From NCBI GenBank assembly GCA_902500205.1, contig GCA_902500205.1_4868.1: a stretch of DNA of 64,000 bases; one strand, 5' to 3'. Position 1 is the stretch's first letter, and the number at the start of each line of letters is the position of its first letter. Origin of the DNA: Escherichia coli (lineage in GTDB: Bacteria > Pseudomonadota > Gammaproteobacteria > Enterobacterales > Enterobacteriaceae). Shown here one piece after another: positions 11,741 to 37,443 of the stretch. The notes beneath the pieces were generated by a model. It had not been told where the DNA came from, ran no database searches, and worked only from the letters and a program-made list of their open reading frames with translations. Position numbers and translations under genes: made by a program.

Positions 11741-11784
11741 AATTAACTCTTATCTAATCGACCATTATCTTAAGGAGTTTTAAC

Positions 11785-12511: not shown

Positions 12512-12532
12512 TCGACGATTGAGGATAAAGTC

Positions 12533-12964: not shown

Positions 12965-12968
12965 AGAA

Positions 12969-13000
12969 AAGGGAGCTTCGGCTCCCCTTCTTTTTTTGTT
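12969..13000 (+). terminator. intrinsic terminator (UUCG tetraloop)
   Basis: GGGAGC-TTCG-GCTCCC followed by CTTCTTTTTTTG. Confidence 0.7.
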
Positions 13001-13117
13001 TCCTTTTCTTTTTTGTTTGCTCTTGTTCGGATTCTGGTACGCTCTACGCTTTTAATATGCTGGCAGGAGGTCTAAAAATCTTACGACCTCAATAATCCCT
13101 TAACTCGAGTTAACGCG

Positions 13118-13915: not shown

Positions 13916-13925
13916 GAGGGTATAG

Positions 13926-14768
13926 GTGTCTATTTACGATAAGCCCTCGAAAGAGATGTTGTTAGATGCTATTAACCGACAGAACGGATTAACGGCCAAT
14001 CCACTCACATGGGAGCAGGTTGCAACTGGCTTCCCTGAGTCTGTCCAAACGCCTGGCGCTGACCGGAATACGCGTGTGCTCTTATACGGGTTGAACGGCA
14101 AGGGCTACAAAGGCAACGTTACGCTCGAATACGACCGTATCGAAATGGAAATTCTGTTCAGGAACGTAATACCGGTAGTCGTTGCCGACCCGGTAAATAA
14201 ACTCTCTGAGTTGTTGCCGTTTCTGAATGCGAAATACGGCTTGTCTTTAGTTGCCGACGATATCGTTGACCAGTCAGTAAAAGATTTGGGAGAAAGCTGG
14301 TTAATCGATGTGACTATTAAGCCCGGTTGCTTGGCCTGGCAAGGTGGTTTCCGTTTACGCTTTGCGAAGTTCTTCCCGAACTTGGCGGATGTGGTGACGG
14401 ATGTTGACCTCAGCGCAATTATCGCGCCGTTCGTGGTTGCTAGTAAACCACAGGCCGAGTATGTGGCGTATGGTTACGATTGGACTGAACTGCAAAAACA
14501 GTTCACCACCGATTGGGTTTACAACCGTGCAATCACTGCAGCGGATGTTGAGTTGTTGAATGAAGTGGTGCCATTAAAGTTTGCATATGTGACGGGGGCG
14601 AATGCGCAACCTGAACAAATTGCACTCCAAGGTGCACGATTTATGGGGATAACTTCAGTCACACCGAACGATAGTTACAACCCCGATTATCAGCGTGTGG
14701 CGATTATCAAGCTAGCTGCGGACAGCAACTACGCCGGTAATCTCATCCTTCATTATCTCCCGATATAA
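13926..14768 (+). CDS. family-A paralog 2 (280 aa)
   Basis: GTG start after AGGAGG; N-terminus MSIYDKPSKEMLLDAINRQN...ADRNTRVLLYG...YKGNVTLEYDRIEMEILF fits the family pattern. Confidence 0.65.
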   Translation: MSIYDKPSKEMLLDAINRQNGLTANPLTWEQVATGFPESVQTPGADRNTRVLLYGLNGKGYKGNVTLEYDRIEMEILFRNVIPVVVADPVNKLSELLPFLNAKYGLSLVADDIVDQSVKDLGESWLIDVTIKPGCLAWQGGFRLRFAKFFPNLADVVTDVDLSAIIAPFVVASKPQAEYVAYGYDWTELQKQFTTDWVYNRAITAADVELLNEVVPLKFAYVTGANAQPEQIALQGARFMGITSVTPNDSYNPDYQRVAIIKLAADSNYAGNLILHYLPI

Positions 14769-19242: not shown

Positions 19243-20655
19243 ATGCTATTTTACTCGAAGGAGTCGGCACTGCTTGTATACGACCAAGTCAATCGGGATA
19301 ACCCTGATTTAGTTGTTAAGCTGACGCCGGCTATCGCTGCTTTAACCGGCGGCCCAACTTCAGTTACGTTAAACCAACGTAACACCAAAGCTGTTTTCAC
19401 CGGGTATCCAGGGACAGGTGTACAAGGTAATGTTACCGTGTACTACGACCGGATTAACCTGGCCACTTTATTTAATTTTGTGCCGACTGTGGCTATCAAA
19501 GATACAGTCTTAACGGTACGAGACGCGCTACCTGCAATAAACGACGCATTGGGGCTTACATTAGTTGCTTCTGATTTGCAGTCACCTGACGCAAGTTTAC
19601 CTAAACCGAGCGCTTCGCCGCAGACGTTGAAATTAAATATCTCAGGTAATTGCCCTGCGTTTACAGGCAGCTTAACGATACGTTATACCGTCCCGAGCGG
19701 TGCAATTTACCCCGATTCTGGACCTGGCCCTAAAACGTTGCTGCAAGGTAACACTATCGCGGGTTATTTCGGAACAACCACAATTGCAGAGTTGTTTACA
19801 CACTCTCAACTTCTTAATGCCACTATATCGGCCGGTGCGTTACCACCGGTACATTCTGGTGCCGAAGGTTGGTACAAGTTCTTTTACCAGGGTAGGGTTA
19901 TTTACCTCCCGATCAGTCCTGTCGCTAGCTCCATCTCCTGGAATACGTTATATACAAACGGACTCGTTTACGGAACAGATGATAATGGTAAATACCCTGC
20001 GGCGACGCCCGTTAACCAGGGACGCATCATTAGCTTTACAGGCGCAGACAACAAAAGGTTTTACTTCCGCGTTCGTCTACCTAGTGCTGGGAAGGACCCA
20101 TACGTCAGCGGCACCCCAACTGCCGCTGAGTTAGCAGGTAGTGAGTTTGAGATGTTCAACTTTCTGTATAATGGAACGTGGGACAAACCGATTAACAGTT
20201 ACTGGACGCTGTTCTGTTTATTGAAAGATACACTGAAGACCAACGTCGCCTATCATCGCATGGCGACGTTGTCTGGAGCCAGTTGGACAAACTTAGGAAA
20301 ATCATCGAGCGCAGGCAACTACTACTGGTTCCCGGTGCTGGAGTTGGTGGATAAATCCACAGTTACCTTGGGTTTAGAAGATATCCATGGTGCGGTAGAT
20401 TACAGTCTCCAACCGTGCAGCGTGTCCGCAGAAAACACGTTTAGTCTCAAGCCGTTGGTGCTCGGTAATCCAGATACTACCGATTTCGAACCGGTAGTTG
20501 TTACTTCAGAAAACAGTTTCGCACTGCATCCGCCTGCTTTAATGCTGCCGAAGACAGTCGATTTCCAACCTATTGCGGCTACCGCTGAAATGTATACGCC
20601 CCCTGACAAGACAACGTTAACGTCTCTTAACGGTGAACTGGACGGCTTTAAGTAG
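19243..20655 (+). CDS. family-A N-terminal domain protein with extended C-terminal region, ends NGELDGFK (470 aa); cassette copy 1, gene a
   Basis: N-terminus MLFYSKESALLVYDQVNRDNPDL...NQRNTKAVF...VYYDRINLATLF; contains SGPGPKTLLQGN..GYFG; C-terminal SLNGELDGFK. Confidence 0.7.
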   Translation: MLFYSKESALLVYDQVNRDNPDLVVKLTPAIAALTGGPTSVTLNQRNTKAVFTGYPGTGVQGNVTVYYDRINLATLFNFVPTVAIKDTVLTVRDALPAINDALGLTLVASDLQSPDASLPKPSASPQTLKLNISGNCPAFTGSLTIRYTVPSGAIYPDSGPGPKTLLQGNTIAGYFGTTTIAELFTHSQLLNATISAGALPPVHSGAEGWYKFFYQGRVIYLPISPVASSISWNTLYTNGLVYGTDDNGKYPAATPVNQGRIISFTGADNKRFYFRVRLPSAGKDPYVSGTPTAAELAGSEFEMFNFLYNGTWDKPINSYWTLFCLLKDTLKTNVAYHRMATLSGASWTNLGKSSSAGNYYWFPVLELVDKSTVTLGLEDIHGAVDYSLQPCSVSAENTFSLKPLVLGNPDTTDFEPVVVTSENSFALHPPALMLPKTVDFQPIAATAEMYTPPDKTTLTSLNGELDGFK

Positions 20656-20666
20656 AGGTATCATCT

Positions 20667-21665
20667 ATGTCTTTTACTTTGCGTTGGAAAAATCCAAACG
20701 TAATCCCTACGGTAGTAAAAATCTACCGTGACGTTAAAGATATCACACCAAGCGCTTTGCCTGAACCGATTGCAACGCTCTCAAATGGCGAGACAGAATG
20801 GCGTGATGCCACCGCCAAACCAGGCGCAATCTATTATTACCTTCTAACGGTAACCGCCAACGGTAAAACAGTGGCATCGTCTAGCCAGAAATACACCATT
20901 GAGATAAAGCGTGGGATTGGCCCAATGACTATTCTAAACGGTAACGACCGTTTAGGGTTTATGGGTGCGGTTCCTTACGACGAACAATGGCTTCCGTCGC
21001 AAATGCCACCTGCATTTTTGGCGATGTTCCCTAATCTATTAACCGATCGTGTGGCGTTGTATAAATTTACCCGAAACGGGAAAATCTATTACATGCTATC
21101 TAATACGTCGCAGTTCCCGAATACGCCTGTGGACTGGGCTTCCCTCTATCAAGCCGGTTTAGTCTATGGTACAGGCGATGCTGGCCCAGAGAACGGCCAT
21201 GGAACGCTACCAGACACTCCACAAGACGCTAAGATAGTCCACAAAGGGGATACGTACATTATGCGGCTTCCTCGCGGCCTGACGATGTCTAGCGAGCCTC
21301 CTGCGTATCCTTTCGTAGCTGACTATAATGGGAAAACCCATGATGAAATCGCTTCTCTAACCAACCCGTGTGAGTATAACGATTTACTTTACACGATGGT
21401 TAACGAGGTGCCGTGGAAACAGCGTTGGGCTAACTGGGCAACGAACAGTTATACTTTTCTGGGGCAGGGTACTTTGGGAACCTTGGCAGCGTATTTCGGC
21501 GGTGGTGTTCTCTGTATGGAACACGACACCGCGGAAGACCGTGTGCTCCATCGTGGTATCTTTAACAATGCCGGTGGAACACCCGTATCAGCGATTCAGC
21601 GTATAAACTATTTATCACCCACCACGAAAGGGCGTTACTACCCTATCTTTGAACTGGTCGAGTAA
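20667..21665 (+). CDS. cassette copy 1, gene b (332 aa), structural-type protein
   Basis: Paralogous to 24121-25107 (shared IYRD..ITPSALPEP.ATL.NGETEW.D, GL.YG..GPGPE.GHG.LPD). Confidence 0.65.
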   Translation: MSFTLRWKNPNVIPTVVKIYRDVKDITPSALPEPIATLSNGETEWRDATAKPGAIYYYLLTVTANGKTVASSSQKYTIEIKRGIGPMTILNGNDRLGFMGAVPYDEQWLPSQMPPAFLAMFPNLLTDRVALYKFTRNGKIYYMLSNTSQFPNTPVDWASLYQAGLVYGTGDAGPENGHGTLPDTPQDAKIVHKGDTYIMRLPRGLTMSSEPPAYPFVADYNGKTHDEIASLTNPCEYNDLLYTMVNEVPWKQRWANWATNSYTFLGQGTLGTLAAYFGGGVLCMEHDTAEDRVLHRGIFNNAGGTPVSAIQRINYLSPTTKGRYYPIFELVE

Positions 21666-21674
21666 GGGGCAGTC

Positions 21675-22598
21675 ATGACTATACGGTTAAGCTGGCCGTC
21701 CCAAGCCAGCAAAGGTCTTACCGCGATTGAAATCTACCGCAAGGAAGGTTGGAACGCAACAATCGACGTTTACAATCCAGGCACACCCCACGCAACTTTA
21801 TCAGGCAACGCGGTAGAGTTCGTAGATAATATCGATACCCTGACGAAGAATACAACCTATCGTTATTGGGTAGCTGCTGTGAAGGACAGTGAACGACTTA
21901 TCGGCAATCCGATTACGCAAGGATTCTATCCGGACACCGGGCCGGGTCCGCAAACAATCCTGCGCGGTGACTGGGCTTCAGGTTATTTCGGTACAGTACC
22001 GAATACAGAGTTCTTTAATACTGCCGAGTTAAAACTCATGTTAACTGCGCAGCAGGGAAACATGTTTGTCTACGACCCTCAGGAATGGCACAAGTTTATT
22101 TTCCGTGGGAGAATTGTCTTCTTCCCAGCGACGATGCATTCGAAAACCAACTCGGTACAAATGGCGTATCAGTACGGTATGATGTACGGGACCGATGATG
22201 TCGGAAGTATTGTTCCGCAGGGAGCCACGGCGACTAAACAAGATTGTAAGGTCACGAAGGATGGTCGTACGTACCGTATCCGATTACCTTACGCAGTCCC
22301 GTACGACGCTGTTCTCTCAGGACAGGATTACAACAACGGTGAATGGCGAAACACAATGGGCCGTTTGTATCCTGTCGGTGCAGAGTTCGCAGCCCTCGGT
22401 CTTGGTGCGATTGACTCACTTGCAAGACAAGGCGCGACTGCGCAGCCGAATGAGTCAGGTGCCGCTGTATTAGCTCCTTTGTGGAGCAACAACATATTCG
22501 CTTATGCGTATGGCACCGTGCCTATGGGGATTAGTAACACCGCAGGTGTCGGGAACTCGGCCACGATATTCTTTGCTTTCGAATTAGTCTTACCGTAA
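21675..22598 (+). CDS. cassette copy 1, gene c (307 aa), structural-type protein
   Basis: Paralogous to 25110-26009 (IEIYRK.GWNATIDV..PGTP.ATL.G, TTYRYW.AAVKD.ER, TGPGPQ..L.GDW..GYFGTV, C-terminal ELVLP). Confidence 0.65.
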   Translation: MTIRLSWPSQASKGLTAIEIYRKEGWNATIDVYNPGTPHATLSGNAVEFVDNIDTLTKNTTYRYWVAAVKDSERLIGNPITQGFYPDTGPGPQTILRGDWASGYFGTVPNTEFFNTAELKLMLTAQQGNMFVYDPQEWHKFIFRGRIVFFPATMHSKTNSVQMAYQYGMMYGTDDVGSIVPQGATATKQDCKVTKDGRTYRIRLPYAVPYDAVLSGQDYNNGEWRNTMGRLYPVGAEFAALGLGAIDSLARQGATAQPNESGAAVLAPLWSNNIFAYAYGTVPMGISNTAGVGNSATIFFAFELVLP

Positions 22599-22611
22599 CG
22601 GAGTAAAAGCC

Positions 22612-24108
22612 ATGGGGTTGTATACAGAACCTTCAATGGAACTGCTCTGCCAACAAATTGTGCGTGACAATCCCGGTTTAGCAGGAAAAATCACCGCTGA
22701 CTCCGTTGGGGTCAGGGGTGTTCCTGTTGCGAGAAACGTTAACGGACGAAACACACAGATTACGTTGGTAGGAAAACCTGGTAAAGGATTTGCTGGGGAA
22801 ATAACGGTATATTACGACCGGTTGAATCTGGCCAGTCTGTTCAAGTCTGGCCCGAATATGGTGAGTATTCCACGTAGCGCACAAACCCATGCGGAAGCGT
22901 TACCGGCGTTCAATGAATTGAACGGGTTGAACTTAACCGCGAGTGACATCACCAGTCCAAACGTTGCATTAATGAAATACGCTACGCCGGAAACTATAAC
23001 TCTGACGGCGCACGCTAACTCCTTGTGCTATACCGGGTCATGCAAGATGACCTATGTTTACGAACCGATTGCGATGTATCCGAAGTCGGGCCCTGGGCCA
23101 AAAGGATTAATGGCCGGTAATGAGTTATACGGATTCTTTGGGCTGGTAAGCGCGGAAGAGTTATTCACATCTGATGAAATGGTGTATGCCCTCTATAACG
23201 GCACCAACTGGCCTAACCGCTACGCTATCAAGTGGCTCAAATTCTTTCTGAATGGGGCGGTAGTGTTTGTTCCGACCCGTGCGATTTGCAACGTTACCTG
23301 GGCAGACCTGTACAACAAGGGTGCAATATTTGATTCCGGAGACGCAGGACCTCGCCCGAAGTCGACTTACACACCTGTCGATGTTGAACAGTTGAAATAC
23401 ATGGTAAAACGGGATGATGAAGGAACGCATTATTTCAGAATGTCTATCCCGTATTACACCGAGAACGCCGCCGCGCCTGATTGGAGTAAACCGCCGTCAA
23501 TCACCTCTATCCTGTCACTGACCAGCAAATTGGGGTCGGTGAACGTATATGGGGAATGGGGAACTCTTAGCACGACTGATGCTAACTTCCTGGATTCCGT
23601 GTGGTTACGACACCAGTTCGGTGCCGACCAAGCGTATTACCAGTCTATCAGTGGGAGCTATCGTTCATACACCTACATCTACACCTCTTCTGGCTTTTGG
23701 CCAATCCTGGAGATGTTTGATGTTGCCAATGAACCTGTGCCGTTGATTGACGAAGGTGCAGAACTAACATGGGCACCGTCCGTGGTTACTCTGACGGACA
23801 TCGACCAAAATGAATCGCTTCGTGTGGTGCCTATTACGGAAACCTCCGCTGCAGCGAATCCACGTCCGTTAGTTTTCAACACCGACAACACCGAAACTGC
23901 CACCCCTGCCTGGGTGCGGGAAGCGTCATCAGACTCACCACGTCCTCTGCTTGCCACGACGGACAATGATGAACGTGCATATTCCGTCGCGGTAACAGGC
24001 ATGGCTAGCGTTAAGATTAGACCGATTATTCTCACGACTGACCAAATCGCCCAACCTTCAAAAATTACTCTGGGCGATACTAACGGTGAGTTGGATGGAT
24101 TCCAATAA
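22612..24108 (+). CDS. family-A N-terminal domain protein with extended C-terminal region, ends NGELDGFQ (498 aa); cassette copy 2, gene a
   Basis: N-terminus MGLYTEPSMELLCQQIVRDNPGL...NGRNTQITL...VYYDRLNLASLF; contains SGPGPKGLMAGNELYGFFG; C-terminal TNGELDGFQ. Confidence 0.7.
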   Translation: MGLYTEPSMELLCQQIVRDNPGLAGKITADSVGVRGVPVARNVNGRNTQITLVGKPGKGFAGEITVYYDRLNLASLFKSGPNMVSIPRSAQTHAEALPAFNELNGLNLTASDITSPNVALMKYATPETITLTAHANSLCYTGSCKMTYVYEPIAMYPKSGPGPKGLMAGNELYGFFGLVSAEELFTSDEMVYALYNGTNWPNRYAIKWLKFFLNGAVVFVPTRAICNVTWADLYNKGAIFDSGDAGPRPKSTYTPVDVEQLKYMVKRDDEGTHYFRMSIPYYTENAAAPDWSKPPSITSILSLTSKLGSVNVYGEWGTLSTTDANFLDSVWLRHQFGADQAYYQSISGSYRSYTYIYTSSGFWPILEMFDVANEPVPLIDEGAELTWAPSVVTLTDIDQNESLRVVPITETSAAANPRPLVFNTDNTETATPAWVREASSDSPRPLLATTDNDERAYSVAVTGMASVKIRPIILTTDQIAQPSKITLGDTNGELDGFQ

Positions 24109-24120
24109 GAGGTAACGACA

Positions 24121-25107
24121 ATGGCTTTTACAATTCGTTGGACGAACAATAACCCTGGGGCTTCGACCGTGAAGCTGTACCGCGACACCAAACCTCTGGT
24201 GCGTACGGCATTACCTGAACCTCTGGCAACGTTCACTAACGGGGAAACTGAGTATACTGACCGAACAGCGATACTGGGGACAACGTATTACTACATGACC
24301 ACTGTGACAGTGGGAAGCCGAACACTGTTCAGTCCGCAGAAATCAATTCTGATTCAGAACCGTCGCGGTATCGGCATCGTGACTCCACAGTACGGTGATG
24401 ACCGCTTTGCGTATTACGGGTATGTGGCGTACGGTGAATTGCCTAGCGCGGCTGATTATCCGCCAGGGTTTGTGGCCATTTCTGGATATGACCCAACTGT
24501 TAAGCCGGGCTTGATTAAGTTCCAGCTAGACGGTAAAATTCTGTATCTGTTTAGTGGTCTTCGTGTGAACGGCAACACGCTGTATAGCCGTGATGCGATT
24601 TATAACGCGGGTTTGCTGTACGGTGTGGAGGGACCTGGTCCGGAAGGCGGTCATGGTGATTTACCTGACGTTGACCAGGCTGGGGAGTTTACGTGGTTGG
24701 GTGACCGCTATCGGATGCGCCTGCTGCGCGGGTTAACGCTCGACAGTGAAAGCCCGGTCATGACACTCGACGCACAGTGGAACGGTAAACTCCATGACGC
24801 GTCACCGTATACTGCCGATAGCGAATACAACCGACTCATCTATGGGATAAGTAGCTGGTTCCCAGAAAAGAAAAAAGTGATGTCCCTGATAAAGTGGTCG
24901 AACACCAGCATATTCGGAAGTGGATCGCTGGTGGCAGGCCGTGGGGCGCATTGTCAGGAGTTTGACCCAGACAGTAAGTTGGGGCTGACGCGCGGATGGG
25001 CGGCGGCGGATTCCACTGATACCGTGGATAACCTCCAGCGTATACAACATGTCCCTGCGACCGTGGGCGGTATTTGGATTCCAGTAATCGAGCTTATCGA
25101 GGATTAA
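24121..25107 (+). CDS. cassette copy 2, gene b (328 aa)
   Basis: Paralog of 20667-21665. Confidence 0.65.
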   Translation: MAFTIRWTNNNPGASTVKLYRDTKPLVRTALPEPLATFTNGETEYTDRTAILGTTYYYMTTVTVGSRTLFSPQKSILIQNRRGIGIVTPQYGDDRFAYYGYVAYGELPSAADYPPGFVAISGYDPTVKPGLIKFQLDGKILYLFSGLRVNGNTLYSRDAIYNAGLLYGVEGPGPEGGHGDLPDVDQAGEFTWLGDRYRMRLLRGLTLDSESPVMTLDAQWNGKLHDASPYTADSEYNRLIYGISSWFPEKKKVMSLIKWSNTSIFGSGSLVAGRGAHCQEFDPDSKLGLTRGWAAADSTDTVDNLQRIQHVPATVGGIWIPVIELIED

Positions 25108-25109
25108 TC

Positions 25110-26009
25110 ATGCCTATTACATTAAACTTTGCACAACGGAAGCCACAGGCGCTCGATAACATTGAAATCTATCGCAAGACGCCGGGCAACGCCACCATTG
25201 ATGTTAATGCACCGGGAACGCCTCTGGCAACCCTTCCGGGTGACGCTACATCGTACGAAGACAACGCTGTGGAAAACAACACCACTTACCGTTATTGGAT
25301 AGCTGCGGTTAAAGACGGTGAGCGTGTCTTCAACACCCCTACCGCCCAAGGGTTCTTTTTAGACACCGGGCCTGGCCCCCAGAAACTGTTATACGGCGAC
25401 TGGCACGCCGGATACTTTGGAACAGTAACGCCAGCAGAGTTATTCACTAACGCGGAACTGAACAGCCTCGTGGTGAATATGTTCAGTTCCGCCGTTGGTG
25501 CCTGGCATAAGTTCATTTACAAAAACCGTATTCTGTTTATGTCCGATAACTCGATAATATACGCTAGCCCGCAGTTCATTTATAACCAGGGGCTGATGTA
25601 CGGCCAGGATGGCAACGGATATGTGCCGAGCTGGGCTAGTGCACGTAACCAACGCCGCACGGTGACGAAAAACGGTTACGAATACGTGGTGCGCTTGCCG
25701 TATTTGTTCGACTACAAATACTGGACGTCTTTCGTTGGAAGCGGTAACACCGAGTTGTATCTCGACGGTGAGTGGTTTAACACCTTCGCGCGCCTGTACA
25801 ACTACAGTGGGCAGTTTCCGCGCTTTGACGACATTCCGGTCGGTCCAATCGATTCGGTTACTGCCCAACAATCTGCATTCTTTGCGGCTATGAATAACTT
25901 GTCCGCTCAGTGGTACAACCGTCCACCCTACCCAGAGTCGCCGTCATGGGGTAACTACGGTACCGATACAATACGCTCTATTGCGGTACTTGAACTCGTT
26001 CTGCCTTAA
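25110..26009 (+). CDS. cassette copy 2, gene c (299 aa)
   Basis: ATG 25110 (MPITLNF..) chosen over the upstream in-frame start; paralog of 21675-22598. Confidence 0.6.
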   Translation: MPITLNFAQRKPQALDNIEIYRKTPGNATIDVNAPGTPLATLPGDATSYEDNAVENNTTYRYWIAAVKDGERVFNTPTAQGFFLDTGPGPQKLLYGDWHAGYFGTVTPAELFTNAELNSLVVNMFSSAVGAWHKFIYKNRILFMSDNSIIYASPQFIYNQGLMYGQDGNGYVPSWASARNQRRTVTKNGYEYVVRLPYLFDYKYWTSFVGSGNTELYLDGEWFNTFARLYNYSGQFPRFDDIPVGPIDSVTAQQSAFFAAMNNLSAQWYNRPPYPESPSWGNYGTDTIRSIAVLELVLP

Positions 26010-26029: not shown

Positions 26030-26065
26030 TATAGCGCACTTTACCATAACAGCTAAAAATAGGCC
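26030..26065 (+). pseudogene. 11-codon remnant resembling a collapsed family-A gene (MGLYSALYHNS)
   Basis: AGGAG RBS plus ATGGGATTGTAT.. similar to the start of gene 22612 (ATGGGGTTGTATAC..); ending ..LYHNS resembles family C-termini (..YHYNS, ..LHYNN). Confidence 0.3.
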
Positions 26066-26099: not shown

Positions 26100-27419
26100 A
26101 TGATCAACTATAACAAACCTGTCATGCAACTGGTTTGGGATCAGATTAATCGTGATAACCCGCAGCTCAAGAAACCGCTCAACGCAACCAACGTGGCGTT
26201 ATTACAAGGTCCTTTAACCAATGCCTTGCGCGATGGTCGCAACAGCCGTATCGTGGTAAACGGATTACAGGGTGGTGGTTACAGCGGTAAGATGGACATC
26301 TACTACGACCGCTTAAACCTTTCGCAGTATTTTAAAGGCGTCAGCGTACCGGTTAAAGTACCTTATCGGGCGACGGTCTACCGCGACATCATCGATCGGA
26401 TTTCCGCAGCTTGTGGGTTGGTGCTTACTGCTGACGATTTAACGTATCCTGACAGCCAGTTTGCAATGATCACTGTGGCAACGGGCGATCGGACGGTGGC
26501 GATTAAATCGGATAACCCCGCATTCACGGGTTATATTCCTATTAGCTTTATTCGTGAAGAGCCCAGCTTTGCCGACTTGTACCACACCACCGAAACCGGA
26601 GCTTGGGAACCCATGGATGTTTACAGCACGGTCTATCGACTCGACTGGAGCATGTACACTCAACAGATAATCAATATCCCAATGGGTACCCCGCTGCGAC
26701 TAAACAGTAACTCGTACATGACCCAGTTCATCGCGGCGCTGTCGGCATGGTCGGGCATCCCGTTCACTATCGGTAATGCTGCTACTGATAACCCGTATGA
26801 CCTCTATGGGTATGTCGCTACACGCAATAACAACCCAGGCTTAGACCCTGATATGCGTGGGGAGTACAAATACTGCGTGAAGTTGACGCCACCTGAGGAT
26901 ATGGGTAATCTCCGCCGTCCGTTCTTCTTGCACTTTGGTCCGAAAAATAACGTGGCCTATTTGGCGCAGGAAGAGGACGTCGAGCGTTATGCGCGTTACA
27001 TGAGTTTCCGGGAAACCAGCCCAAATTCGATGAGCGTCACGTTGTATCAAAACGAGTACGTGTTGACTCGGGCAGAATCGCCTGAAACAGCGGATGATTT
27101 AACGGGTTCCCCGTATGGCACTCGATACTGTACCGGGAGTATTCGACGGCTGATGCAACACGCGTTTCCGACCGAAGAGATGTTCCAAGAAAGTATTGCT
27201 AACCGACGTCGGGTACTGTACCACACTGCTTACACCACCACGACATCAGCTATTACTTACCAGGGATTATACCGTAACGGATACCAATCCAAACAAATGA
27301 CGAGCCTCTACTCGAATTACTGTAACTATTTCATCTATTACGACCCAAGCAAAGGCGGCTATATGGTCTACAGTCCATATAGCAAAACCGCCCCGGTCCC
27401 TTGGTATCCACCGCTATAG
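26100..27419 (+). CDS. family-A N-terminal domain protein, 439 aa, C-terminal SKTAPVPW motif
   Basis: N-terminus MINYNKPVMQLVWDQINRDNPQL...DGRNSRIVV...IYYDRLNLSQYF; C-terminus YSPYSKTAPVPWYPPL related to next gene. Confidence 0.65.
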   Translation: MINYNKPVMQLVWDQINRDNPQLKKPLNATNVALLQGPLTNALRDGRNSRIVVNGLQGGGYSGKMDIYYDRLNLSQYFKGVSVPVKVPYRATVYRDIIDRISAACGLVLTADDLTYPDSQFAMITVATGDRTVAIKSDNPAFTGYIPISFIREEPSFADLYHTTETGAWEPMDVYSTVYRLDWSMYTQQIINIPMGTPLRLNSNSYMTQFIAALSAWSGIPFTIGNAATDNPYDLYGYVATRNNNPGLDPDMRGEYKYCVKLTPPEDMGNLRRPFFLHFGPKNNVAYLAQEEDVERYARYMSFRETSPNSMSVTLYQNEYVLTRAESPETADDLTGSPYGTRYCTGSIRRLMQHAFPTEEMFQESIANRRRVLYHTAYTTTTSAITYQGLYRNGYQSKQMTSLYSNYCNYFIYYDPSKGGYMVYSPYSKTAPVPWYPPL

Positions 27420-27433: not shown

Positions 27434-29611
27434 ATGTCCTACACTCCTGATTTAGTGGCGACCGTGATTCGGTCGCTCAACCGTAAAAACGCGGTCGCCA
27501 GAGCAGTAGACCCCGCTAACGTACGCCTGGTGTCCGTGGCGCATCGTGACGAAAAAACCCTAGACGTCACACTGACAGGGGGTCCGGGGTATTCTAGTTA
27601 CGGTCAAATTACGGCCCAGGTCACGAAGCAAAATATTGCTGATTATTTCGCTAAGGTTAAGTTGGATGCCATTCCCACTTGTGCGTCCATCCACGAACTG
27701 TTGCCACATTTAGACACTCTACTAGGGATTACCTTTTTAACCGACGACTTTGAAGACCTGCCCATCACTTGGACAAACAATGCTGCGCGCATCACGTTCC
27801 AGGCGAAACAGACAAGTCTTATCTGGTACGGCAGCCAAACGCTAGATGTGATAAACGGTGACGTGGATATCAACACTGTCTACACTGTTACCAATATCAT
27901 TTTCACGCTAAAGGCTGCGAATAAACAGCAGTGGATTAACTTCTACTCTAATGCAGCCAAACGGATCGTGGATCTTGATAAAGTCGATGTCAGCGCCCCG
28001 ATGTCCCCGGAGGATATAGGCCAAACCTCTGCGTATAACAGCGTCGTAGCTTTGACCGCTAGACCGGGGAGCGGGATGTTTGGAACGAAGTATGTGTTCT
28101 TCTCACGTAACAAACTCGAGACATATGCAGGCAAAACCACATACGTCCCGGACGATTTCACCGGTAGCCTGCATGATGCTCTGGCCATCGAGACACTCGG
28201 CATTCGGAGTGTTTTTGATGTAAACGAAATTGCTCCTGTAGAGAACCTGACAGGCGAGTGGCCGAGACAAGTGCAATTGGCACCCGTAGAGGGTTCGTAC
28301 AAAGTCATGGGCAGCGCCACGTTGAATGTGGCACGCTATCAAGATAACGAGCAAACCCTTAACCTGAACTACACAACTACGTCGCAACTTTCGGACAGCT
28401 ACTGGGCCACAACGTTGATCAACCATGCGGCCTGCGGGCGTTTGTTTGTTAACGTGACCGTAGATGCGGGGGCTTTCGTTTATCGCGACAGCAACCTGAA
28501 ACCGACGTTCGTTATCGACGAATTGCCGCAAATTGGCGAGGTGGTTTGGAACTTCGTTAACCGGGGAACCATTCTTGGTCGTGGTGGTTCGGGTGTGGTC
28601 TACTCTATGCCTGCGAACACATCAGCGGACGGAGCTGACGCAATCCACATTAGCGATACCTTCCGTGGCAAAGTCACCATCGAAAACTACGGCACCATCG
28701 CCGGTGGTGGGGGTGGGGGCGACTACTATGCGTTTAGCACCACCAAGATCGGTGGAGCTGGTGGTGCGCCTCTCGGGCCAGGCGCGGCGGTGCCCAGCGA
28801 CACCAATAACCGTAACGGCTTAGCTGGGTCCCGTGACAAAGGCGGTGCTACCCAGTTAGTCGTCGCGCAATTTACCGGCTACCAGAGTCGCTACTATGGC
28901 GGTCCGGGTGGGGATTGGGGCCAGCCGGGACGTTATACAGCGTTCGAGCAATGGAACACCCCGGCTACCGGCTCGCCGGTCTATGTCTACGGTCGTGAAG
29001 ACGGGATGTCATGGACTCGCCCTGGGATGGCAGGCGAAGCCGTCGGTGGGAATAAAAGTATCGTCAACTGGGTATCCGTCGGAACGGTGAAACCGAATGT
29101 CACCGACGAGTACCAAGAGTTCCTCGACTACCTCGCAGATTTAGATGCCAACCGACTGGCTAGTGCGGATGGGATAGATAAAGTCACCGACCCAACCAAA
29201 CCTGTAGTTGTGGAGTTCTTAGGTACGATTATTTCAGGTACGCTGTTCAAAAAGCAAAACATACCCGGCGGTTTGGTGGGAACACCATACGGCGATGCTG
29301 TAGCCAACTTACCAGCCACCACATTGTTTGGTATCATGGCACACTGTGTATCGGAGTTTGATATTGTGCACGACACTTGGCGTTACAACCGCGCGGTAAT
29401 GTTCACGCTAAAACCCGCACCTACCGGGGCGATTAGCCTCGCTGTGGAACGCAACCGGGTGAAATCGGCTACCAGTAGTGCACCGGTGGAGAAGTTCTAC
29501 GTCGATCGCTTCGTGTATTACGATGCGTATCTCGGTAAAATGATGGAATGTAATCCGTATACCAAATCTGCCCCTAAACCGTGGGTGCGGCCAACGATAC
29601 CGTTATCGTAA
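27434..29611 (+). CDS. family-A-related large protein, 725 aa, Gly-rich internal segment, C-terminal TKSAPKPW motif
   Basis: Weaker N-terminal family resemblance; internal GGGGGGDYYAFSTTKIGGAGGAPLGPGAAVP; C-terminus NPYTKSAPKPWVRP parallels the preceding gene. Confidence 0.65.
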   Translation: MSYTPDLVATVIRSLNRKNAVARAVDPANVRLVSVAHRDEKTLDVTLTGGPGYSSYGQITAQVTKQNIADYFAKVKLDAIPTCASIHELLPHLDTLLGITFLTDDFEDLPITWTNNAARITFQAKQTSLIWYGSQTLDVINGDVDINTVYTVTNIIFTLKAANKQQWINFYSNAAKRIVDLDKVDVSAPMSPEDIGQTSAYNSVVALTARPGSGMFGTKYVFFSRNKLETYAGKTTYVPDDFTGSLHDALAIETLGIRSVFDVNEIAPVENLTGEWPRQVQLAPVEGSYKVMGSATLNVARYQDNEQTLNLNYTTTSQLSDSYWATTLINHAACGRLFVNVTVDAGAFVYRDSNLKPTFVIDELPQIGEVVWNFVNRGTILGRGGSGVVYSMPANTSADGADAIHISDTFRGKVTIENYGTIAGGGGGGDYYAFSTTKIGGAGGAPLGPGAAVPSDTNNRNGLAGSRDKGGATQLVVAQFTGYQSRYYGGPGGDWGQPGRYTAFEQWNTPATGSPVYVYGREDGMSWTRPGMAGEAVGGNKSIVNWVSVGTVKPNVTDEYQEFLDYLADLDANRLASADGIDKVTDPTKPVVVEFLGTIISGTLFKKQNIPGGLVGTPYGDAVANLPATTLFGIMAHCVSEFDIVHDTWRYNRAVMFTLKPAPTGAISLAVERNRVKSATSSAPVEKFYVDRFVYYDAYLGKMMECNPYTKSAPKPWVRPTIPLS

Positions 29612-29654
29612 TTTAACGAGGAACTTGACGGGTTTAAAGCCTGAAGATAAACCA

Positions 29655-29690
29655 TGCCCTCTTCCCCACGGGGAAGAGGCTTTCTTTTTA
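29655..29690 (+). terminator. intrinsic terminator
   Basis: CCTCTTCCCC..GGGGAAGAGG hairpin followed by CTTTCTTTTT. Confidence 0.7.
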
Positions 29691-29716: not shown

Positions 29717-30307
29717 GTGGTCGATCGTTGGAGTAAAGAGGGCATTATTCGTGCCAAAGTAAACATCGAAGCCGGTTACGTTAATAACCCGAAAGATTTG
29801 GGTAAAGCAACGAACCGTGGTGTCACCGAACTCACGGCGCGTGAATATGGCTATAAAGGGGATATGCGTGACCTGAGCTTAGAAATCGCGTTAGACATTT
29901 ACAACAAGCTCTGGTGGCAGCGAATGCGTTTAGACCAGATTATGAAAATGAATGTCCTGCTAGCTGACCGGATGTTTGACTTCGGCATTAACGCAGGACG
30001 CGGTAACTGTATCAAGTCCCTGCAACGTATTCTGAACGTATTAAACCGTCAGGGTAAACTATACGATGATATCGATGCCGATGGTGGTATCGGGCCACGT
30101 ACGTTAACAGCGTTAGAAGGCTTCATCAAAGCCCGTGGGGAAGAGGGCCTGAATCGACTGATGTTCGCTTTAACCTGTCATCAGGTTGCGTATTACACGG
30201 AAATCAGTGAAGGGCGTGAGGATAACGAAGAGTTTACTTACGGCTGGTATGGCCGCGTCTATCAGGAAATGCCAGACTACGTGGCTAAGTTGGGGATGTG
30301 CAAATGA
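29717..30307 (+). CDS. putative endolysin, glycoside hydrolase family 108-like N-terminus
   Basis: GTG 29717 five nt after AGGAGG; N-terminal EAGYVNNPKDLGKATNRGVTE resembles the GH108 signature (EGGYVNDP.D.GG.T..GIT) as I recall it; position at head of a lysis-type cassette. Confidence 0.55.
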   Translation: MVDRWSKEGIIRAKVNIEAGYVNNPKDLGKATNRGVTELTAREYGYKGDMRDLSLEIALDIYNKLWWQRMRLDQIMKMNVLLADRMFDFGINAGRGNCIKSLQRILNVLNRQGKLYDDIDADGGIGPRTLTALEGFIKARGEEGLNRLMFALTCHQVAYYTEISEGREDNEEFTYGWYGRVYQEMPDYVAKLGMCK

Positions 30308-32492: not shown

Positions 32493-33041
32493 ATGGCAGT
32501 TATCTCTGCAAAAGACCAACTCGTCGCGCTGTTTAATGCTGCAAACAGCGGGCTGTCCAGTCCGTTAACTTCTGCTGACGTTACATTCGGCGCTGTTGCT
32601 GACTATTCACCAGCTGATTCTGGAGACACTCGCAACTCCAAACTTACCATCACCGCCACTGCGGAATCCGCTAACTTTACTGGCGAGAAAGAGCTGCATT
32701 ATACCCGTCTCAATTCATTGAACATCATCGGTGCGAAAGCAGTGACCGCTGACCAGGCAGAATGGGATACCGATGATGAAGTGCTTGCTTTTGTCAACGC
32801 AGATCTAATTGCCGCCGGTAAAACGGAAGATGCGTTTGCATTGTCTGAACTCACCATTACACGCGAGGACGGCAGCAGTGGTGAGAAAATCATCACTGTT
32901 AAGGTGAAAGAAGGCCACATTAAATACCAACCTGCCAGCCTTGCTGTTTATACAGTAACGCAGCCAATCGTTAAAACCGACCTGAGCACCACCAATGGTG
33001 AACTGGACGGATTCGACGGCAAAGGTCACGCTGTCATGTAA
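32493..33041 (+). CDS. short family-A-like protein ending TTNGELDGFDGKGHAVM (182 aa)
   Basis: N-terminal pattern (..DQLVALFNAAN...GDTRNSKLTI...HYTRLNSLNII) and C-terminal NGELDGF motif link it to the 13-29 kb array. Confidence 0.6.
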   Translation: MAVISAKDQLVALFNAANSGLSSPLTSADVTFGAVADYSPADSGDTRNSKLTITATAESANFTGEKELHYTRLNSLNIIGAKAVTADQAEWDTDDEVLAFVNADLIAAGKTEDAFALSELTITREDGSSGEKIITVKVKEGHIKYQPASLAVYTVTQPIVKTDLSTTNGELDGFDGKGHAVM

Positions 33042-33793: not shown

Positions 33794-34335
33794 TCGTCCT
33801 CCTCAATCAGGCCAAGTTCTAACAACAAACCGAAGTCCAGCATCTGGAAGTCCTGATCGAGGTTACCGGCCCACAACAGAGAAATGTTGTGTTGCTCTTC
33901 TTCTTCCAACTGCGGGAGCAGGTGTTCTTCGAAGATTTGACGTTCTGTGTAATAAGCGTCAACCGGGTTATTGGAGCGTAAGTTACGAATACGCATCCGC
34001 GGGAATGACAAGCCCAATGCCACTAAACTTTCAGGACTGGCTTCATCAATAGAGTGACGTAGCAGTTCGATTTTGTGGCGTGGGTATGCAAGCAGTCGCT
34101 TCTCAAAGCCAGGGTTGCGCTTTTCGATTTCCGCGACAGACTCGTGTCCTTTCTCAACGCAGTAGACCGGGATCATCACATTCAGCCCGTATTTAATCAA
34201 CAGGCTTTGGATTTCATCAGTGAAGTCTTCCCCTGCCACAATTGCGTGCACATTGTACAGCTTGCTTTTGCGCAGGAAGCGATCGACCAAGTGCAGTTTA
34301 CGCTTCGTAAAATTGTGAATCAGTATTGACTTCAT
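33769..34335 (-). CDS. hypothetical protein (188 aa) in rSAM cluster
   Basis: Start set at internal ATG (MKSILIHNF..) to limit overlap with upstream rSAM gene; acidic C-terminus. Confidence 0.45.
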   Translation of the reverse strand: MKSILIHNFTKRKLHLVDRFLRKSKLYNVHAIVAGEDFTDEIQSLLIKYGLNVMIPVYCVEKGHESVAEIEKRNPGFEKRLLAYPRHKIELLRHSIDEASPESLVALGLSFPRMRIRNLRSNNPVDAYYTERQIFEEHLLPQLEEEEQHNISLLWAGNLDQDFQMLDFGLLLELGLIEEDECLLLTKA

Positions 34336-35626
34336 TCTGGGCTCCGTTTTGTAATTTTTCTGCTTCAGCACGTTGGCGTACACAACGTGAACAATAGCAC
34401 ATGGATTTATCATGCAAATCTGATGCGCGGGTCGTACCAGTTTTCTGATACCAATATTCCGCCGCCATCAGCTTCGCAGTAGTCCAACCACACTGACGAC
34501 GTTCGGCGTGATACGCTTTACGGTCTTCCAGTGTACCTTCACCGTTTTCGTACGATGCTGCTGCGCAGCTACCGCAACTGTGTTTCATCGGACACCCTAA
34601 ACAGGTTTCTGGGTAGTTGGTGTACTGCGTTTGAATCTCTTCTAACAGCTTACCACCGTCCAGGCTCACAAACTCACGACCGACCAGTTCTGCTACAGCA
34701 GAACGGGAAGTTACCGTGGACATGAAACGGTTACAACCGTAAATCTTGCGATCAAAGCCGAGACAGGTCATGTGCGTCAACGTACCGCAGTACGGTTTCA
34801 GGCGTTCTGGGTCGAGACGAACAGAGTCGTCATGTAAGAGTTTGTCACGCCAATCCGGGTCCCAAGTTGCCATAAAGTTCAGGCCATCCGGGATGATGTG
34901 TGTAATCGTGTTACGCGGGTTGGTGTGCAGACCCTTCTCAATCCAGTAGTCCATCACGTCCATCATCTGGTTCGCGATATCCAACGCCATATGGCGCGGC
35001 AGGATATCTTCGTACGTTACGTTACCAGAGATGGTACCACCGCCGGACATGTCAATTAACGATTTCATGCTGGCGGCATAGTGCGGCAATGTATCGATCG
35101 TAAACGTCGCCTTTACGCCCAGCTCAGCGATGCCAACGCTCTTCAGGTAATTGTAACCGCGTACCGCAGCTTCGTACGACCCTTCACGCGTCGTGGTAAA
35201 GATACGATATTTGTCATGGACTTCAGGTAAACCATCGATGGAGACCCCAATAGACAGTTTGTCTTTCCAGCGCTCGATAATTTCTTTGTTCAGCGGTCGG
35301 TCCAGAAGTGTACCGTTCGTGGAGATACTGAACATATACGGGCGATTGTGTTCTGCGCATAACTTCTCTGCGGTTTCAAAGGCCGCCAAAAGAAGTTTAG
35401 GCTGCATGAACGGCTCACCACCGATGATATCGATGATGACTTCAACGTTCGGGATATCTTTATCGCGCTCGAAACAAGCGTGGATAAAATCAATCACGTC
35501 TGCTACTTTGTTGTTACGCGGATATTTACGCTCGTAGCAGTATTCGCAGTCCAGGTTACATGACAAGTTAGTCACAACCTGATACGTGCGTGGTGTGTAC
35601 TGGATTTGCTGTTCGCTATTACTCAT
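34298..35626 (-). CDS. radical SAM enzyme with SPASM-like C-terminal Cys cluster (putative peptide-modifying maturase)
   Basis: CNLDCEYC (CX3CX2C) near N-terminus, GGEP motif, and C-terminal CLGCPMKHSCGSC (Cx2Cx5Cx2C) plus further Cys, as in SPASM/twitch auxiliary cluster domains. Confidence 0.75.
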   Translation of the reverse strand: MSNSEQQIQYTPRTYQVVTNLSCNLDCEYCYERKYPRNNKVADVIDFIHACFERDKDIPNVEVIIDIIGGEPFMQPKLLLAAFETAEKLCAEHNRPYMFSISTNGTLLDRPLNKEIIERWKDKLSIGVSIDGLPEVHDKYRIFTTTREGSYEAAVRGYNYLKSVGIAELGVKATFTIDTLPHYAASMKSLIDMSGGGTISGNVTYEDILPRHMALDIANQMMDVMDYWIEKGLHTNPRNTITHIIPDGLNFMATWDPDWRDKLLHDDSVRLDPERLKPYCGTLTHMTCLGFDRKIYGCNRFMSTVTSRSAVAELVGREFVSLDGGKLLEEIQTQYTNYPETCLGCPMKHSCGSCAAASYENGEGTLEDRKAYHAERRQCGWTTAKLMAAEYWYQKTGTTRASDLHDKSMCYCSRCVRQRAEAEKLQNGAQNEVNTDSQFYEA

Positions 35627-36533
35627 TGTTCGCCGCCCGTTTACGCTTAGCAGAAATTACACGGTTGATGTAGTTATACGCATCAACGCCGATAGAACGC
35701 GCCAGGCGATTACAGCCGACTTCCAATATCTCTGGCGCGTTCTGAATTTGCTCCTGCGTACCGTCGGCGTTAAGCCACAGCACTTCACTGCACGTGTTGC
35801 ACTCGGTATCGAACATTTTACTGATCGCAAGCCCACATTCAGAATCGTTCTGCATGTTAAGGCGTTCGATATTGTCGAGTATTTTCCAATACCCGTACAT
35901 GAAGTTCATGACGTGGTCTGGCGATAACGGTTTCGGCATCATCGCATCAAACAGCAACGACATACCACCTGGACGGTAATGATAGATTGCTCGGTGCAGC
36001 TCGATGAAATCTTCGTACCAGCGTTTATCGCCTAACTGGTCACGCGTCATCACACCCCAGGTGTAATAGTTGTCCAGCTCGTACAGCACTTCCAGCGCTT
36101 CGTGATTACCACCGTTTACAAAGTTCATAAACGGACGTTCCGACTTCTTGTAGCCGTCAATGGACACAAAGATAAGGTCGAACTGTTTCAGCAACGGCAG
36201 ATGTGATTTACGCATCTTTAAACCGTTGGTGTACATGTGATGACGGAGGTTCGGATGAGACTCCTTCAACTCATTCACGAAGTCTTCAATCTTGCGCTGC
36301 GCTAACAGCGGCTCACCGCCCGTCCAATGAATCTCACCGATATCCGGATTCTTCTCTAAAATCGAGAGAATCTCTTCACGTTGAAACTCACGAGAAGTAT
36401 CTTCTCTATCCATGTAATAAGCCCCTCCACAGAAGCTACAGTCTAAGTTACACTTAGAAGTTGCGACAACCGACAGAATTGACGGTTTGTCGTACAGTTC
36501 AGACGAGATCCTGGATTCTACTTGATCTGTCAT
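35619..36533 (-). CDS. radical SAM enzyme (second, 304 aa)
   Basis: CNLDCSFC (CX3CX2C) and WTGGEPLL motifs; ATG 36533 (MTDQ..) after GGAG; C-terminal region has additional Cys (ECNTCSE). Confidence 0.7.
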   Translation of the reverse strand: MTDQVESRISSELYDKPSILSVVATSKCNLDCSFCGGAYYMDREDTSREFQREEILSILEKNPDIGEIHWTGGEPLLAQRKIEDFVNELKESHPNLRHHMYTNGLKMRKSHLPLLKQFDLIFVSIDGYKKSERPFMNFVNGGNHEALEVLYELDNYYTWGVMTRDQLGDKRWYEDFIELHRAIYHYRPGGMSLLFDAMMPKPLSPDHVMNFMYGYWKILDNIERLNMQNDSECGLAISKMFDTECNTCSEVLWLNADGTQEQIQNAPEILEVGCNRLARSIGVDAYNYINRVISAKRKRAANNE

Positions 36534-36555
36534 TGCAGGTTGCTCCAGTATATTT

Positions 36556-37443
36556 TTAAATATAATCAATGGCGAATAAAGGATCTTCGTCTACATTAGC
36601 GCCAGGCACCAGTAACATCGGGTCGTGATAGGCAGCTAAAATTTTGTTCAGGTCGGCATGTCTTTCGTTCAAGCGTTTCAAATCGGCCAACGTAACCGAA
36701 CGACTACGAATCTCAGAAACAGCTTCTGCTTCTTCTTTCGTTAAATCCACCTTCGTTAAGAGGAAGCTTACCAGCTTACTCAAATCCGCTTCTGTCGCCG
36801 GGTAATCCCCATATCGGGTTTGAACCAGGTGTTGCATCCACGGCTTACGAATACGTTTGGTGATTTCGAAATCGTCAGTCAGCGCATACCAGACAGAACG
36901 CTTTTTATCCCACACGAACTTATAGCTATACGCCATCATGTCCGCTAAACGGGTGATGCCGAGTTCTTTATATCCCTCGATATCGATGTACGGTTCGGTG
37001 TCGAAATACGTTTCCGTATCGGCAGGTACCAGTACAAAGTAGTAAGGGAATGAGCCCAGATAGTCCGGACTCCACCAACGGCGCGCCATCGGTTTTGCTT
37101 CGAGTTCGTCAAACGGTGTAAACATCAGTTCTAAATCGACACTGTTGTTCAAAATCCCTTCACTGAAGAAATACTTACCGTCGACTAACACGCCACGAGA
37201 GTTACCATCGCCGTTAAAGATAACGATGGCCTCTGCAACCATATCACGGATCTTAAACGTATTTTCTACGGTGTAGTTCTTCTTGTCGGTCAAGAAGCGA
37301 CCACGAACCTTTGGCCACTCACCAGGAATCTGTGCAATCAGTCTGACTTTGTCAGCGAGGTGTGCACGCACCGAATCTGGGGAAGATAGATGCAGCGGGT
37401 GGTTGAATGTGGTTTTATACGCAAGATGCAAATCGTTTTTCAT
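36556..37443 (-). CDS. hypothetical protein (295 aa) between precursors and rSAM genes
   Basis: ATG after GGAG; no recognisable motif; position suggests accessory or partner role. Confidence 0.5.
   Translation of the reverse strand: MKNDLHLAYKTTFNHPLHLSSPDSVRAHLADKVRLIAQIPGEWPKVRGRFLTDKKNYTVENTFKIRDMVAEAIVIFNGDGNSRGVLVDGKYFFSEGILNNSVDLELMFTPFDELEAKPMARRWWSPDYLGSFPYYFVLVPADTETYFDTEPYIDIEGYKELGITRLADMMAYSYKFVWDKKRSVWYALTDDFEITKRIRKPWMQHLVQTRYGDYPATEADLSKLVSFLLTKVDLTKEEAEAVSEIRSRSVTLADLKRLNERHADLNKILAAYHDPMLLVPGANVDEDPLFAIDYI

Follow-up and report, generated by a model that had tools for sequence, protein, structure and literature searches.

Genes and domains at the locus

The window analysed here, a 64,000-nucleotide (nt) stretch of contig GCA_902500205.1_4868.1, shows 97–98% nt identity to Salmonella phage SPN3US and its relatives of the genus Seoulvirus, and by sequence it is assigned to the SPN3US clade. 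SPN3US is a chimallivirus, i.e., a phiKZ-like, nucleus-forming jumbo phage (PMC5694885, PMC10052503, and general knowledge of the group). Our analysis concerns a gene of 725 amino acids (aa) in this window, together with the short stretch behind its stop codon, in which a peptide motif found at the C-terminus of related proteins can still be read in the same frame. The 725-aa gene is the ortholog of SPN3US gp155 (RefSeq tag ACQ60_gp111), the 439-aa gene upstream of it is gp154, and a 182-aa gene is gp160; these numbers were obtained from the offset between RefSeq tag and published gene number, with gp168, the 5.2-kb gene, as anchor. SPN3US gp155 (78.3 kDa) was found in purified virions by mass spectrometry, with 55 spectra and 60% coverage (PMC5694885 supplement).

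The 725-aa protein carries a DUF7941 N-terminal domain, a glycine-rich region resembling Gp38 adhesins, with GGGGGG and GGAGGAP runs in its translation, and a C-terminal domain in common with the 439-aa paralog (Table 1). The BLASTP alignment of the 725-aa and 439-aa proteins stops 1 and 5 residues short of the two C-termini. Based on a paralog alignment, the DUF7941 N-terminal domain is common to 11 proteins of the window, which correspond to the 'paralog family B' of SPN3US (PMC5694885). Apart from the 725-aa protein, scores well above the Pfam cut-off of 27 bits were obtained for the 470-aa (109.5 bits), 439-aa (90.6 bits) and 182-aa (41.7 bits) members. Other DUF7941 paralogs, which do not have the motif described below, end in ...LHYN.

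Table 1. Coordinates of the 725-aa gene, its domains, the stretch behind it and the intact motif copies in the 64,000-nt window
Feature	Position	Strand	Evidence or remark
725-aa gene, gp155 ortholog; virion-associated DUF7941 protein with Gp38-adhesin-like domain, 13 codons shorter than the putative ancestral form	27434..29611	+	Open reading frame; 97–98% nt identity to SPN3US clade
DUF7941 N-terminal domain, residues 11–154	27464..27895	+	Pfam PF25613, 8e-24, 85 bits against a cut-off of 27
Gp38-adhesin-like glycine-rich region, residues 362–553	28517..29092	+	Pfam PF05268, 1.5e-18, 67.9 bits against a cut-off of 25
C-terminal domain, residues 614–720, common to the 439-aa paralog (26100–27419)	29273..29593	+	BLASTP E=2e-8
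Stop codon TAA, probably a derived nonsense codon; CAA (Gln) in the intact ortholog	29609..29611	+	DNA alignments and codon table; TAA in 10 aligned phage genomes and metagenome contig L025
Putative motif fossil FNEELDGFKA (probable ancestral form YNGELDGFKA)	29612..29641	+	Now untranslated 3' sequence; near-invariant Gly replaced by Glu
Second stop TGA (probably derived; ortholog CGA), AGA (ortholog GGA) and putative ancestral stop TAA (common to the ortholog)	29642..29650	+	
Intrinsic terminator, 9-bp stem CCTCTTCCC/GGGAAGAGG with 4-nt loop, then T-tract CTTTCTTTTT	29658..29689 (hairpin 29658–29679)	+	3' of the fossil, 5' of the endolysin gene
Intact motif copy TTLTSLNGELDGFK	20611..20652	+	C-terminus of 470-aa triplet-head DUF7941 protein
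Intact motif copy ITLGDTNGELDGFQ	24064..24105	+	C-terminus of 498-aa triplet-head DUF7941 protein
Intact motif copy TDLSTTNGELDGF	32976..33014	+	182-aa protein, N-terminal domain and linker only; gp160 ortholog

A motif in frame beyond the stop codon

Past the TAA that closes the 725-aa open reading frame, the same frame reads TTT AAC GAG GAA CTT GAC GGG TTT AAA GCC TGA (29612–29644), which translates as F-N-E-E-L-D-G-F-K-A-stop, and continues with AGA and a further TAA. The original prediction, made from the sequence alone, had pointed to this peptide directly 3' of the stop, and both the reading-frame analysis and a six-frame search of the window confirmed it. The six-frame search for N[GE]ELDGF returned only four matches, at 20629, 24082, 32994 and 29615, the last being the post-stop copy. 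The first two lie at the end of the 470-aa gene (...NGELDGFK, then stop) and of the 498-aa gene (...NGELDGFQ, then stop). The match at 32994 lies in the 182-aa gene, which ends ...NGELDGFDGKGHAVM; the claim that three family members end with the motif is thus correct for the two longer genes, while in the 182-aa gene the motif stands 7 residues short of the C-terminus.

From base composition, 7e-5 matches are expected per window over all six frames, and 9e-8 within the 15 in-frame codons past the stops of the 11 family genes. Because so few matches are expected per window and 20 shuffles of the sequence gave none, the post-stop motif is real and chance is excluded. A nucleotide alignment of the four motif-coding stretches, which had been proposed along with the original observation, gave 80–90% identity over 20 nt, with differences that are mostly synonymous.

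Orthologs point to a nonsense mutation

A search of a large protein collection returned few homologs of the 725-aa protein. One of them, P0002 (locus L004), is 82% identical, 738 aa long, and ends ...KPWVRPKTPLSQYNGELDGFKARG, as compared to ...KPWVRPTIPLS in the window protein. The two genes are collinear codon for codon, both spanning 739 codons (2217 nt) from the start to a common TAA (29648–29650) with no insertion or deletion. The terminal tail of P0002 reads ...PLSQYNGELDGFKARG and is followed by TAA at the place of the third stop of the window. From the window to L004, the codons of this 3' end change from TAA to CAA (Gln), TTT to TAT, GAG to GGG, TGA to CGA and AGA to GGA. Further orthologs are closed by the motif as well: P0003 (79% identical) ends ...ISMLGGEPNGFV, P0011 (38%) ends ...DLSKARGTLDGFKK, the ortholog of Cronobacter phage CR5 ends ...DLSKAQDTLDGFKK and a second copy at locus L011 ends ...LLSALNGELDGFIS; apart from P0003, these show 38–40% identity to the window protein. 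Since the motif closes several divergent orthologs (38–82% identity), the long, motif-ended form is, by sequence comparison, the ancestral one.

We consider it highly probable (roughly 0.9) that the post-stop stretch is the dead 3' end of the 725-aa gene, produced by a single C-to-T change of CAA (Gln) to TAA. The ancestor would have been a 738-residue Gp38-type DUF7941 protein ending ...P-L-S-Q-Y-N-G-E-L-D-G-F-K-A-R-G. The change at the Gln codon would have occurred on the branch from which all known SPN3US-clade phages descend and cut off the last 13 residues, and the orphaned codons would then have been stranded between the new stop and the terminator, where they would have evolved neutrally. 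We found no evidence against a nonsense origin of the stop. This was the first of the options raised in the original prediction, namely that the gene had once ended with the motif and then acquired a nonsense codon, and it is supported by the collinear L004 gene with CAA and by the divergent orthologs that end with the motif. The comparison with homologs that it had called for revealed that orthologs outside the SPN3US clade have CAA or the motif at this position instead of unrelated 3' sequence. The stop had also been considered as the native end of the gene, given that the homologous domain of the 439-aa paralog ends there; the motif-ended orthologs overturned this. An intermediate with CAA in the SPN3US gene order was not found in scans of viral contigs for the terminator and of contigs from metagenomes and genomes for the 22-nt core of the motif, and only SPN3US-clade copies with TAA were seen.

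Gene order and the polarity of the change

The DUF7941 cluster contains triplets, each composed of a DUF7941 protein of ~470–510 aa followed by two proteins of about 300–350 aa. The window is without the third triplet of SPN3US, with a gap of ~3.4 kb at window ~26031–26039 that corresponds to SPN3US (L002) 11149–14597. JN03 (L001) has three triplets and no 439+725 pair, and more distant relatives have one or two pairs of a 439-aa gene and a gene of seven hundred odd residues (439+7xx) 5' of the triplets. On sequence comparison, the order and number of these cassettes appear fluid.

This fluidity is relevant to a different origin of the stretch, in which it would be a recombination scar, left from a replaced gene that ended NGELDGFK before the terminator as module shuffling brought in the 439+725 pair, and would never have been part of the 725-aa gene. 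The 439+7xx pair lies 5' of the triplets in L004, L005, L009, L011 and CR5, and it lies 3' of them, abutting the terminator, in the SPN3US clade; in JN03, which lacks the pair, similarity to the window resumes at 29647, just past the fossil; and the 439-aa paralog, which shares the C-terminal domain, ends right after PWYPP with no motif. All of this would fit a scar. However, collinearity with L004, free of insertions and deletions, extends across the stop position, through the motif and on to the final TAA common to both; orthologs of 38–79% identity have the motif at the corresponding place although their gene order differs; and synteny breaks 3' of the ancestral stop and not between the gene body and the motif. 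The motif is therefore placed, from these alignments, on the collinear side of the synteny breakpoint and appears to belong to the 725-aa gene instead of being a scar of a replaced neighbour, and we regard the scar as very unlikely. The recombination junction suggested in the original prediction is correct in one respect, in that there is a synteny break on the 3' side of the ancestral stop, at most a few bases beyond it; the motif is situated in the collinear portion of the gene and was not created by the breakpoint.

Were the polarity reversed, the ancestor would have had the short form, and the long form of the L004 type would have arisen by a stop-to-sense mutation into downstream sequence. 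P0010, a distant homolog of 706 aa, and the 439-aa paralogs end after a PW(V/Y)(R/P)P segment with no motif, as would be expected from a short ancestor. Against this, it is implausible that a 3' untranslated region would by chance encode a motif common to at least 20 paralogs (7e-5 per window), the motif closes the ortholog in at least four divergent lineages, CR5 included, and the window copy has derived defects, i.e., Glu in place of Gly and the internal TGA. We give the reverse polarity hardly any credence.

Age and decay of the post-stop stretch

The TAA and the second stop TGA are present in 10/10 aligned SPN3US-clade phage genomes and in the 242-kb metagenome contig L025 (11/11), and the SPN3US-clade isolates with TAA come from several continents. 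Because the stop is fixed in all 11 genomes inspected and these are so widespread, the nonsense mutation predates the known SPN3US clade. The description of the nonsense codon as recent consequently needs to be qualified, as it postdates the split from the L004 lineage and is older than the SPN3US clade.

The stretch has accumulated further changes. The Phe codon TTT, at a near-invariant position, has become GTT (Val) in SPN3US, SEGD1, Proteus phage 7, EC001 and SaP7, and SaP7 has in addition an 11-nt deletion within the motif. A further stop is found at codon 723, three codons upstream of the TAA, in EC001 (L012, TAG) and in Lh1B (L014, TGA; a low-quality record with many undetermined bases, to be treated with caution), so that the protein is 722 aa long; this looks like continued erosion of a now functionless ...PLS tail. 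When the window was compared with SPN3US, the gene body had a proportion of synonymous differences (pS) of 0.065 and of nonsynonymous differences (pN) of 0.0097, with a ratio of 0.15, while the 42 nt past the stop contained 4 differences (0.095), at or above the synonymous rate. Based on the within-clade pN/pS of 0.15, the truncated 725-aa gene is still under purifying selection, and the fossil has diverged at a neutral rate with no coding constraint. The shortened protein is still made and still present in SPN3US particles, i.e., it remains in use although the tail is gone.

The eight core motif codons (window 29615–29641 and L004 3221–3247) are identical at every synonymous site in spite of a gene-wide pS of 0.59; ~3 synonymous differences would be expected (P ~0.01), and the ten codons upstream diverge normally. 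No comparable nucleotide conservation is seen among the paralogous motif copies. This identity between the window and L004 could be due to chance, to a tiny recombination tract, or to constraint from the translation-initiation region of the gene directly 3' in the ancestral order.

Programmed read-through, by which some ribosomes would pass the TAA and produce a longer, motif-bearing isoform, was the remaining option of the original prediction. The motif does stand in frame directly 3' of the stop, and the eight codons of its core match the intact ortholog exactly. The pattern of change nevertheless contradicts it: read-through would add only 10 residues before the TGA, with Glu at the near-invariant Gly position; the second in-frame stop occurs in all clade genomes; Val replaces the near-invariant Phe in SPN3US and four other genomes, and the deletion in SaP7 breaks the frame; the fossil diverges at or above the synonymous rate; and EC001 and Lh1B have the additional upstream stop. 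Furthermore, the TAA is followed by T, and in enterobacteria a U after TAA makes for efficient termination. In the window, to which the search was confined, ARAGORN detected no tRNA gene. Read-through is in our opinion scarcely credible.

Three other candidates were rejected. Switching of fibre C-termini by a shufflon or an invertase of the Gin/Cin type was set aside as all motif copies are direct, on the plus strand, and share only 80–90% of their bases over 20 nt without a long stretch of exact identity; the annotations of SPN3US and JN03 list no recombinase among the genes nearby. Processing by the prohead protease was dismissed since the motif has N-G-E and not A-X-E, the site of the SPN3US prohead protease gp245 (PMC10052503). 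A function of the motif at the nucleotide level was discarded given that the paralogous copies differ at synonymous sites.

Distribution and identity of the C-terminal motif

Across relatives, the extended motif reads [DP]-L-[SGA]-x-x-[NDS]-G-E-L-D-G-F, followed by 0–11 variable residues, and it closes proteins of three architectures: the Gp38-type (722–738 aa), the triplet heads (464–509 aa) and the short gp160-type (171–183 aa). The 20 motif copies that we compared use differing synonymous codons, which argues for selection on the peptide. Within the gp160 family, few alignment columns are as conserved as those of the motif.

The gp160 family was aligned with the standard DUF7941 paralogs of 264–306 aa by hhalign (probability 97.7%, E 2.6e-12); in this alignment VKTDLSTTNGELDGF falls on the linker ESLVSAVTTNVLTGLKY. 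The match was made for the 182-aa (gp160) family only, and for the long proteins the assignment rests on identity of the motif. The consensus of the DUF7941 linker after the N-terminal domain is L-x4-T-x3-L-x-G-L-x-Y-P, and some linkers read ATELDGLKYP or TKLDGLVYP. Gp23 of phage Goslar, which is composed of the N-terminal domain and linker only, ends ...KDQLATVLADNVADGFVKP..., and the N-terminal halves of gp23 and of the 182-aa protein are related (hhalign E 1.7e-5).

In the AlphaFold 2 monomer model of the 182-aa protein, the motif has a predicted local distance difference test (pLDDT) score of 74–83. For the 470-aa protein, residues 1–378 form a confidently predicted fold, and residues 379–470, i.e., ~90 residues with the motif at their end, have pLDDT <50 and are predicted to be disordered. 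An island of confidence at the C-terminal motif, as a sign of docking in cis, was not seen in the model of the 470-aa protein. The disordered segment of ~90 residues that ends in the motif fits a tethered short linear motif. A Foldseek search of the PDB with the model of the 182-aa protein gave no match below E=1e-3, and a sequence profile search of the PDB returned only chance matches near E=1; the phiKZ baseplate entry to which the Goslar preprint refers was not among the matches.

Triplet heads of the Erwinia phages Caitlin, Machina and pEa_SNUABM_8 and of a metagenome contig (L021–L024; gene ends at 2871–2880) end ...YTPPES or ...YTPPA before the stop. In these four loci, the motif of ~14 codons is cleanly deleted, the next gene starts 5–13 nt on, and no fossil is present. 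By sequence, these deletions appear to be independent losses. The known losses of the motif comprise the stop codon in SPN3US-clade gp155, clean deletions in several Erwinia phage triplet heads, and absence in one metagenomic paralog.

A possible role of the lost peptide in DUF7941 assembly

In ordinary DUF7941 proteins of 270–300 aa, the linker directly follows the N-terminal domain. For Goslar, the linker of each protomer is predicted by AlphaFold 3 to dock on the following protomer's N-terminal domain, filaments of purified gp22 are seen by negative-stain electron microscopy, and gp23 is present in ~2000 copies per virion; a 'fiber cloud' has been proposed at the peripheral baseplate, decorated by members with host-recognition domains (bioRxiv 10.64898/2026.04.21.720040). 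By analogy, the lost peptide could be a DUF7941 linker element that was shifted to the extreme C-terminus, so that the ancestor was recruited through its N-terminal domain and recruited the next subunit through its C-terminal peptide; we see the chances of this reading as about even. NGELDGF would then be the linker or docking peptide, displaced in the long proteins behind the inserted domains, and both PLSQYNGELDGFKARG and KTDLSTTNGELDGF would be candidate ligands of the DUF7941 N-terminal domain. The ancestral 738-aa protein would have been recruited at one end and have recruited a further subunit at the other, while the truncated protein of the SPN3US clade would still be recruitable, consistent with the presence of gp155 in particles, with its C-terminal linker copy (the donor site) gone. 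It is possible that the truncated gp155-type protein serves as a terminal, non-branching, receptor-binding unit.

Several observations weigh against this functional reading. Repeated losses of the motif (in P0010 and in the triplet heads of Erwinia phages) indicate that it is dispensable in some settings, and gp155 still reaches particles, so that the motif is not needed for incorporation. The two monomer models disagree in their confidence in the motif, which has a pLDDT of 74–83 in the 182-aa protein and below 50 in the 470-aa protein. In addition, the spacing of the C-terminal motif is off by two residues in comparison to the internal linker, and behind its N-terminal domain the 725-aa protein still has an internal, degenerate segment resembling the linker, so that loss of the C-terminal copy may change little. 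Finally, SPN3US proteomics puts paralog family B, gp155 and gp160 included, in the head and finds it in tailless particles, in contrast to the Goslar model, which places these proteins at the baseplate. Self-assembling filaments that co-purify with heads could reconcile the two placements.

A broader and more doubtful proposal is that [DP]-L-S-x-x-N-G-E-L-D-G-F might act as a portable 'plug' by which receptor-binding modules are wired into DUF7941 filaments. Its repeated loss might then be a switch between chain-extending and chain-terminating (or branching and non-branching) subunits that retunes the host-recognition fibre network.

Neighbouring features

The intrinsic terminator behind the fossil is kept in JN03, where another gene abuts it. 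A 20-nt inverted repeat (29653–29672 and 30132–30151, 95% complementary) links it to the endolysin gene, in that an arm of the terminator hairpin recurs in the endolysin coding region (…ARGEEGL…); such a repeat is unlikely by chance in 14 kb. The mechanically called endolysin reading frame starts at ATG 29654 and crosses the terminator; the annotated starts of relatives vary (ATG 29690 or later), and a GTG at ~29717 behind a strong AGGAGG matches the JN03 endolysin start MVDRW.

The second and third proteins of the two triplets of the window (332/307 aa and 328/311 aa; 19243–26009) have no Pfam match. They share a central domain (...GPGPK.LL.G...GYFG...AELF...) with the triplet head and end ...ELVE or ...ELVLP.

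A radical SAM pair (34298–35626 and 35619–36569, both on the minus strand) adjoins the DUF7941 cluster and is kept in SPN3US, JN03 and the CR5-like contig L009. The 442-aa radical SAM protein contains CNLDCEYC and a SPASM-like CLGCPMKHSCGSC. Its best NCBIfam matches are peptide maturases, i.e., a CXXX-repeat maturase (3e-36) and the PapB ranthipeptide maturase (1e-32, nearly full length), and every one of them falls far short of its family cut-off. No relevant paper on radical SAM or SPASM enzymes of jumbo phages was found in literature searches. That the motif is a substrate of this adjacent maturase-like pair strikes us as most improbable.

Significance and comparison with known systems

The event itself is mundane, a point mutation that removed 13 codons, yet it points to a sharply conserved terminal peptide in three DUF7941 architectures, one that aligns with the proposed polymerising linker. 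3' truncation by nonsense mutation is a known kind of event, and DUF7941 and paralog family B were known already. The Goslar preprint describes neither this motif nor its loss and does not mention SPN3US (bioRxiv 10.64898/2026.04.21.720040), and we found no paper that describes the truncation of gp155 or its C-terminal motif. SPN3US is the genetic model of this phage group, and its gp155, a natural variant without the motif that still enters the virion, can be used to test head-to-tail assembly. Repair of the stop in gp155, or removal of the motif from gp145, gp148 or gp160, would bear on the placement in head or baseplate too. For annotation and structure prediction, caution is needed in that the SPN3US-clade form is probably not the ancestral architecture.

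The DUF7941 proteins of the window resemble Goslar gp22/gp23 and SPN3US paralog family B in having a DUF7941 N-terminal domain well above the cut-off, in being encoded by a multi-paralog cluster of a chimallivirus and in being virion proteins; some members carry host-recognition domains, and NGELDGF aligns with the linker that is predicted to dock. The 182-aa protein is like Goslar gp23 in particular, being composed of the N-terminal domain and linker only, very abundant (as SPN3US gp160) and encoded near the endolysin. Unlike in the Goslar DUF7941 proteins, the linker-like motif stands at the extreme C-terminus of the long proteins, behind a Gp38-like region or behind a folded central domain and a disordered tether of ~90 residues, and in the 725-aa gene it is cut off by a stop codon.

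The glycine-rich-motif region of the 725-aa protein resembles the Gp38 adhesins of the T2/T6/S16 type and matches the PF05268 model at 67.9 bits, which suggests a receptor-binding role. Classical Gp38, however, is a separate protein of ~260 residues on the tip of gp37, while here the region is internal to a DUF7941 protein.

The in-frame coding that is recognisable directly past the stop recalls read-through extensions such as that of Q-beta A1 and of some other phage and viral structural proteins. In contrast to these, the downstream frame is interrupted, is decaying and lacks conservation within the clade, the TAA stands in a strong context, and the window yielded no suppressor tRNA. The stretch is most like an ordinary nonsense 3' truncation, with one base change, an intact ortholog that extends to the common, putatively ancestral stop, and a remnant that gained a stop, replacements and a deletion at the neutral rate. 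It differs from an ordinary pseudogenised 3' end in that only 13 of 738 codons were lost while the rest of the gene is still functional and under selection, and in that what was lost would be a discrete, conserved terminal motif and not bulk protein.

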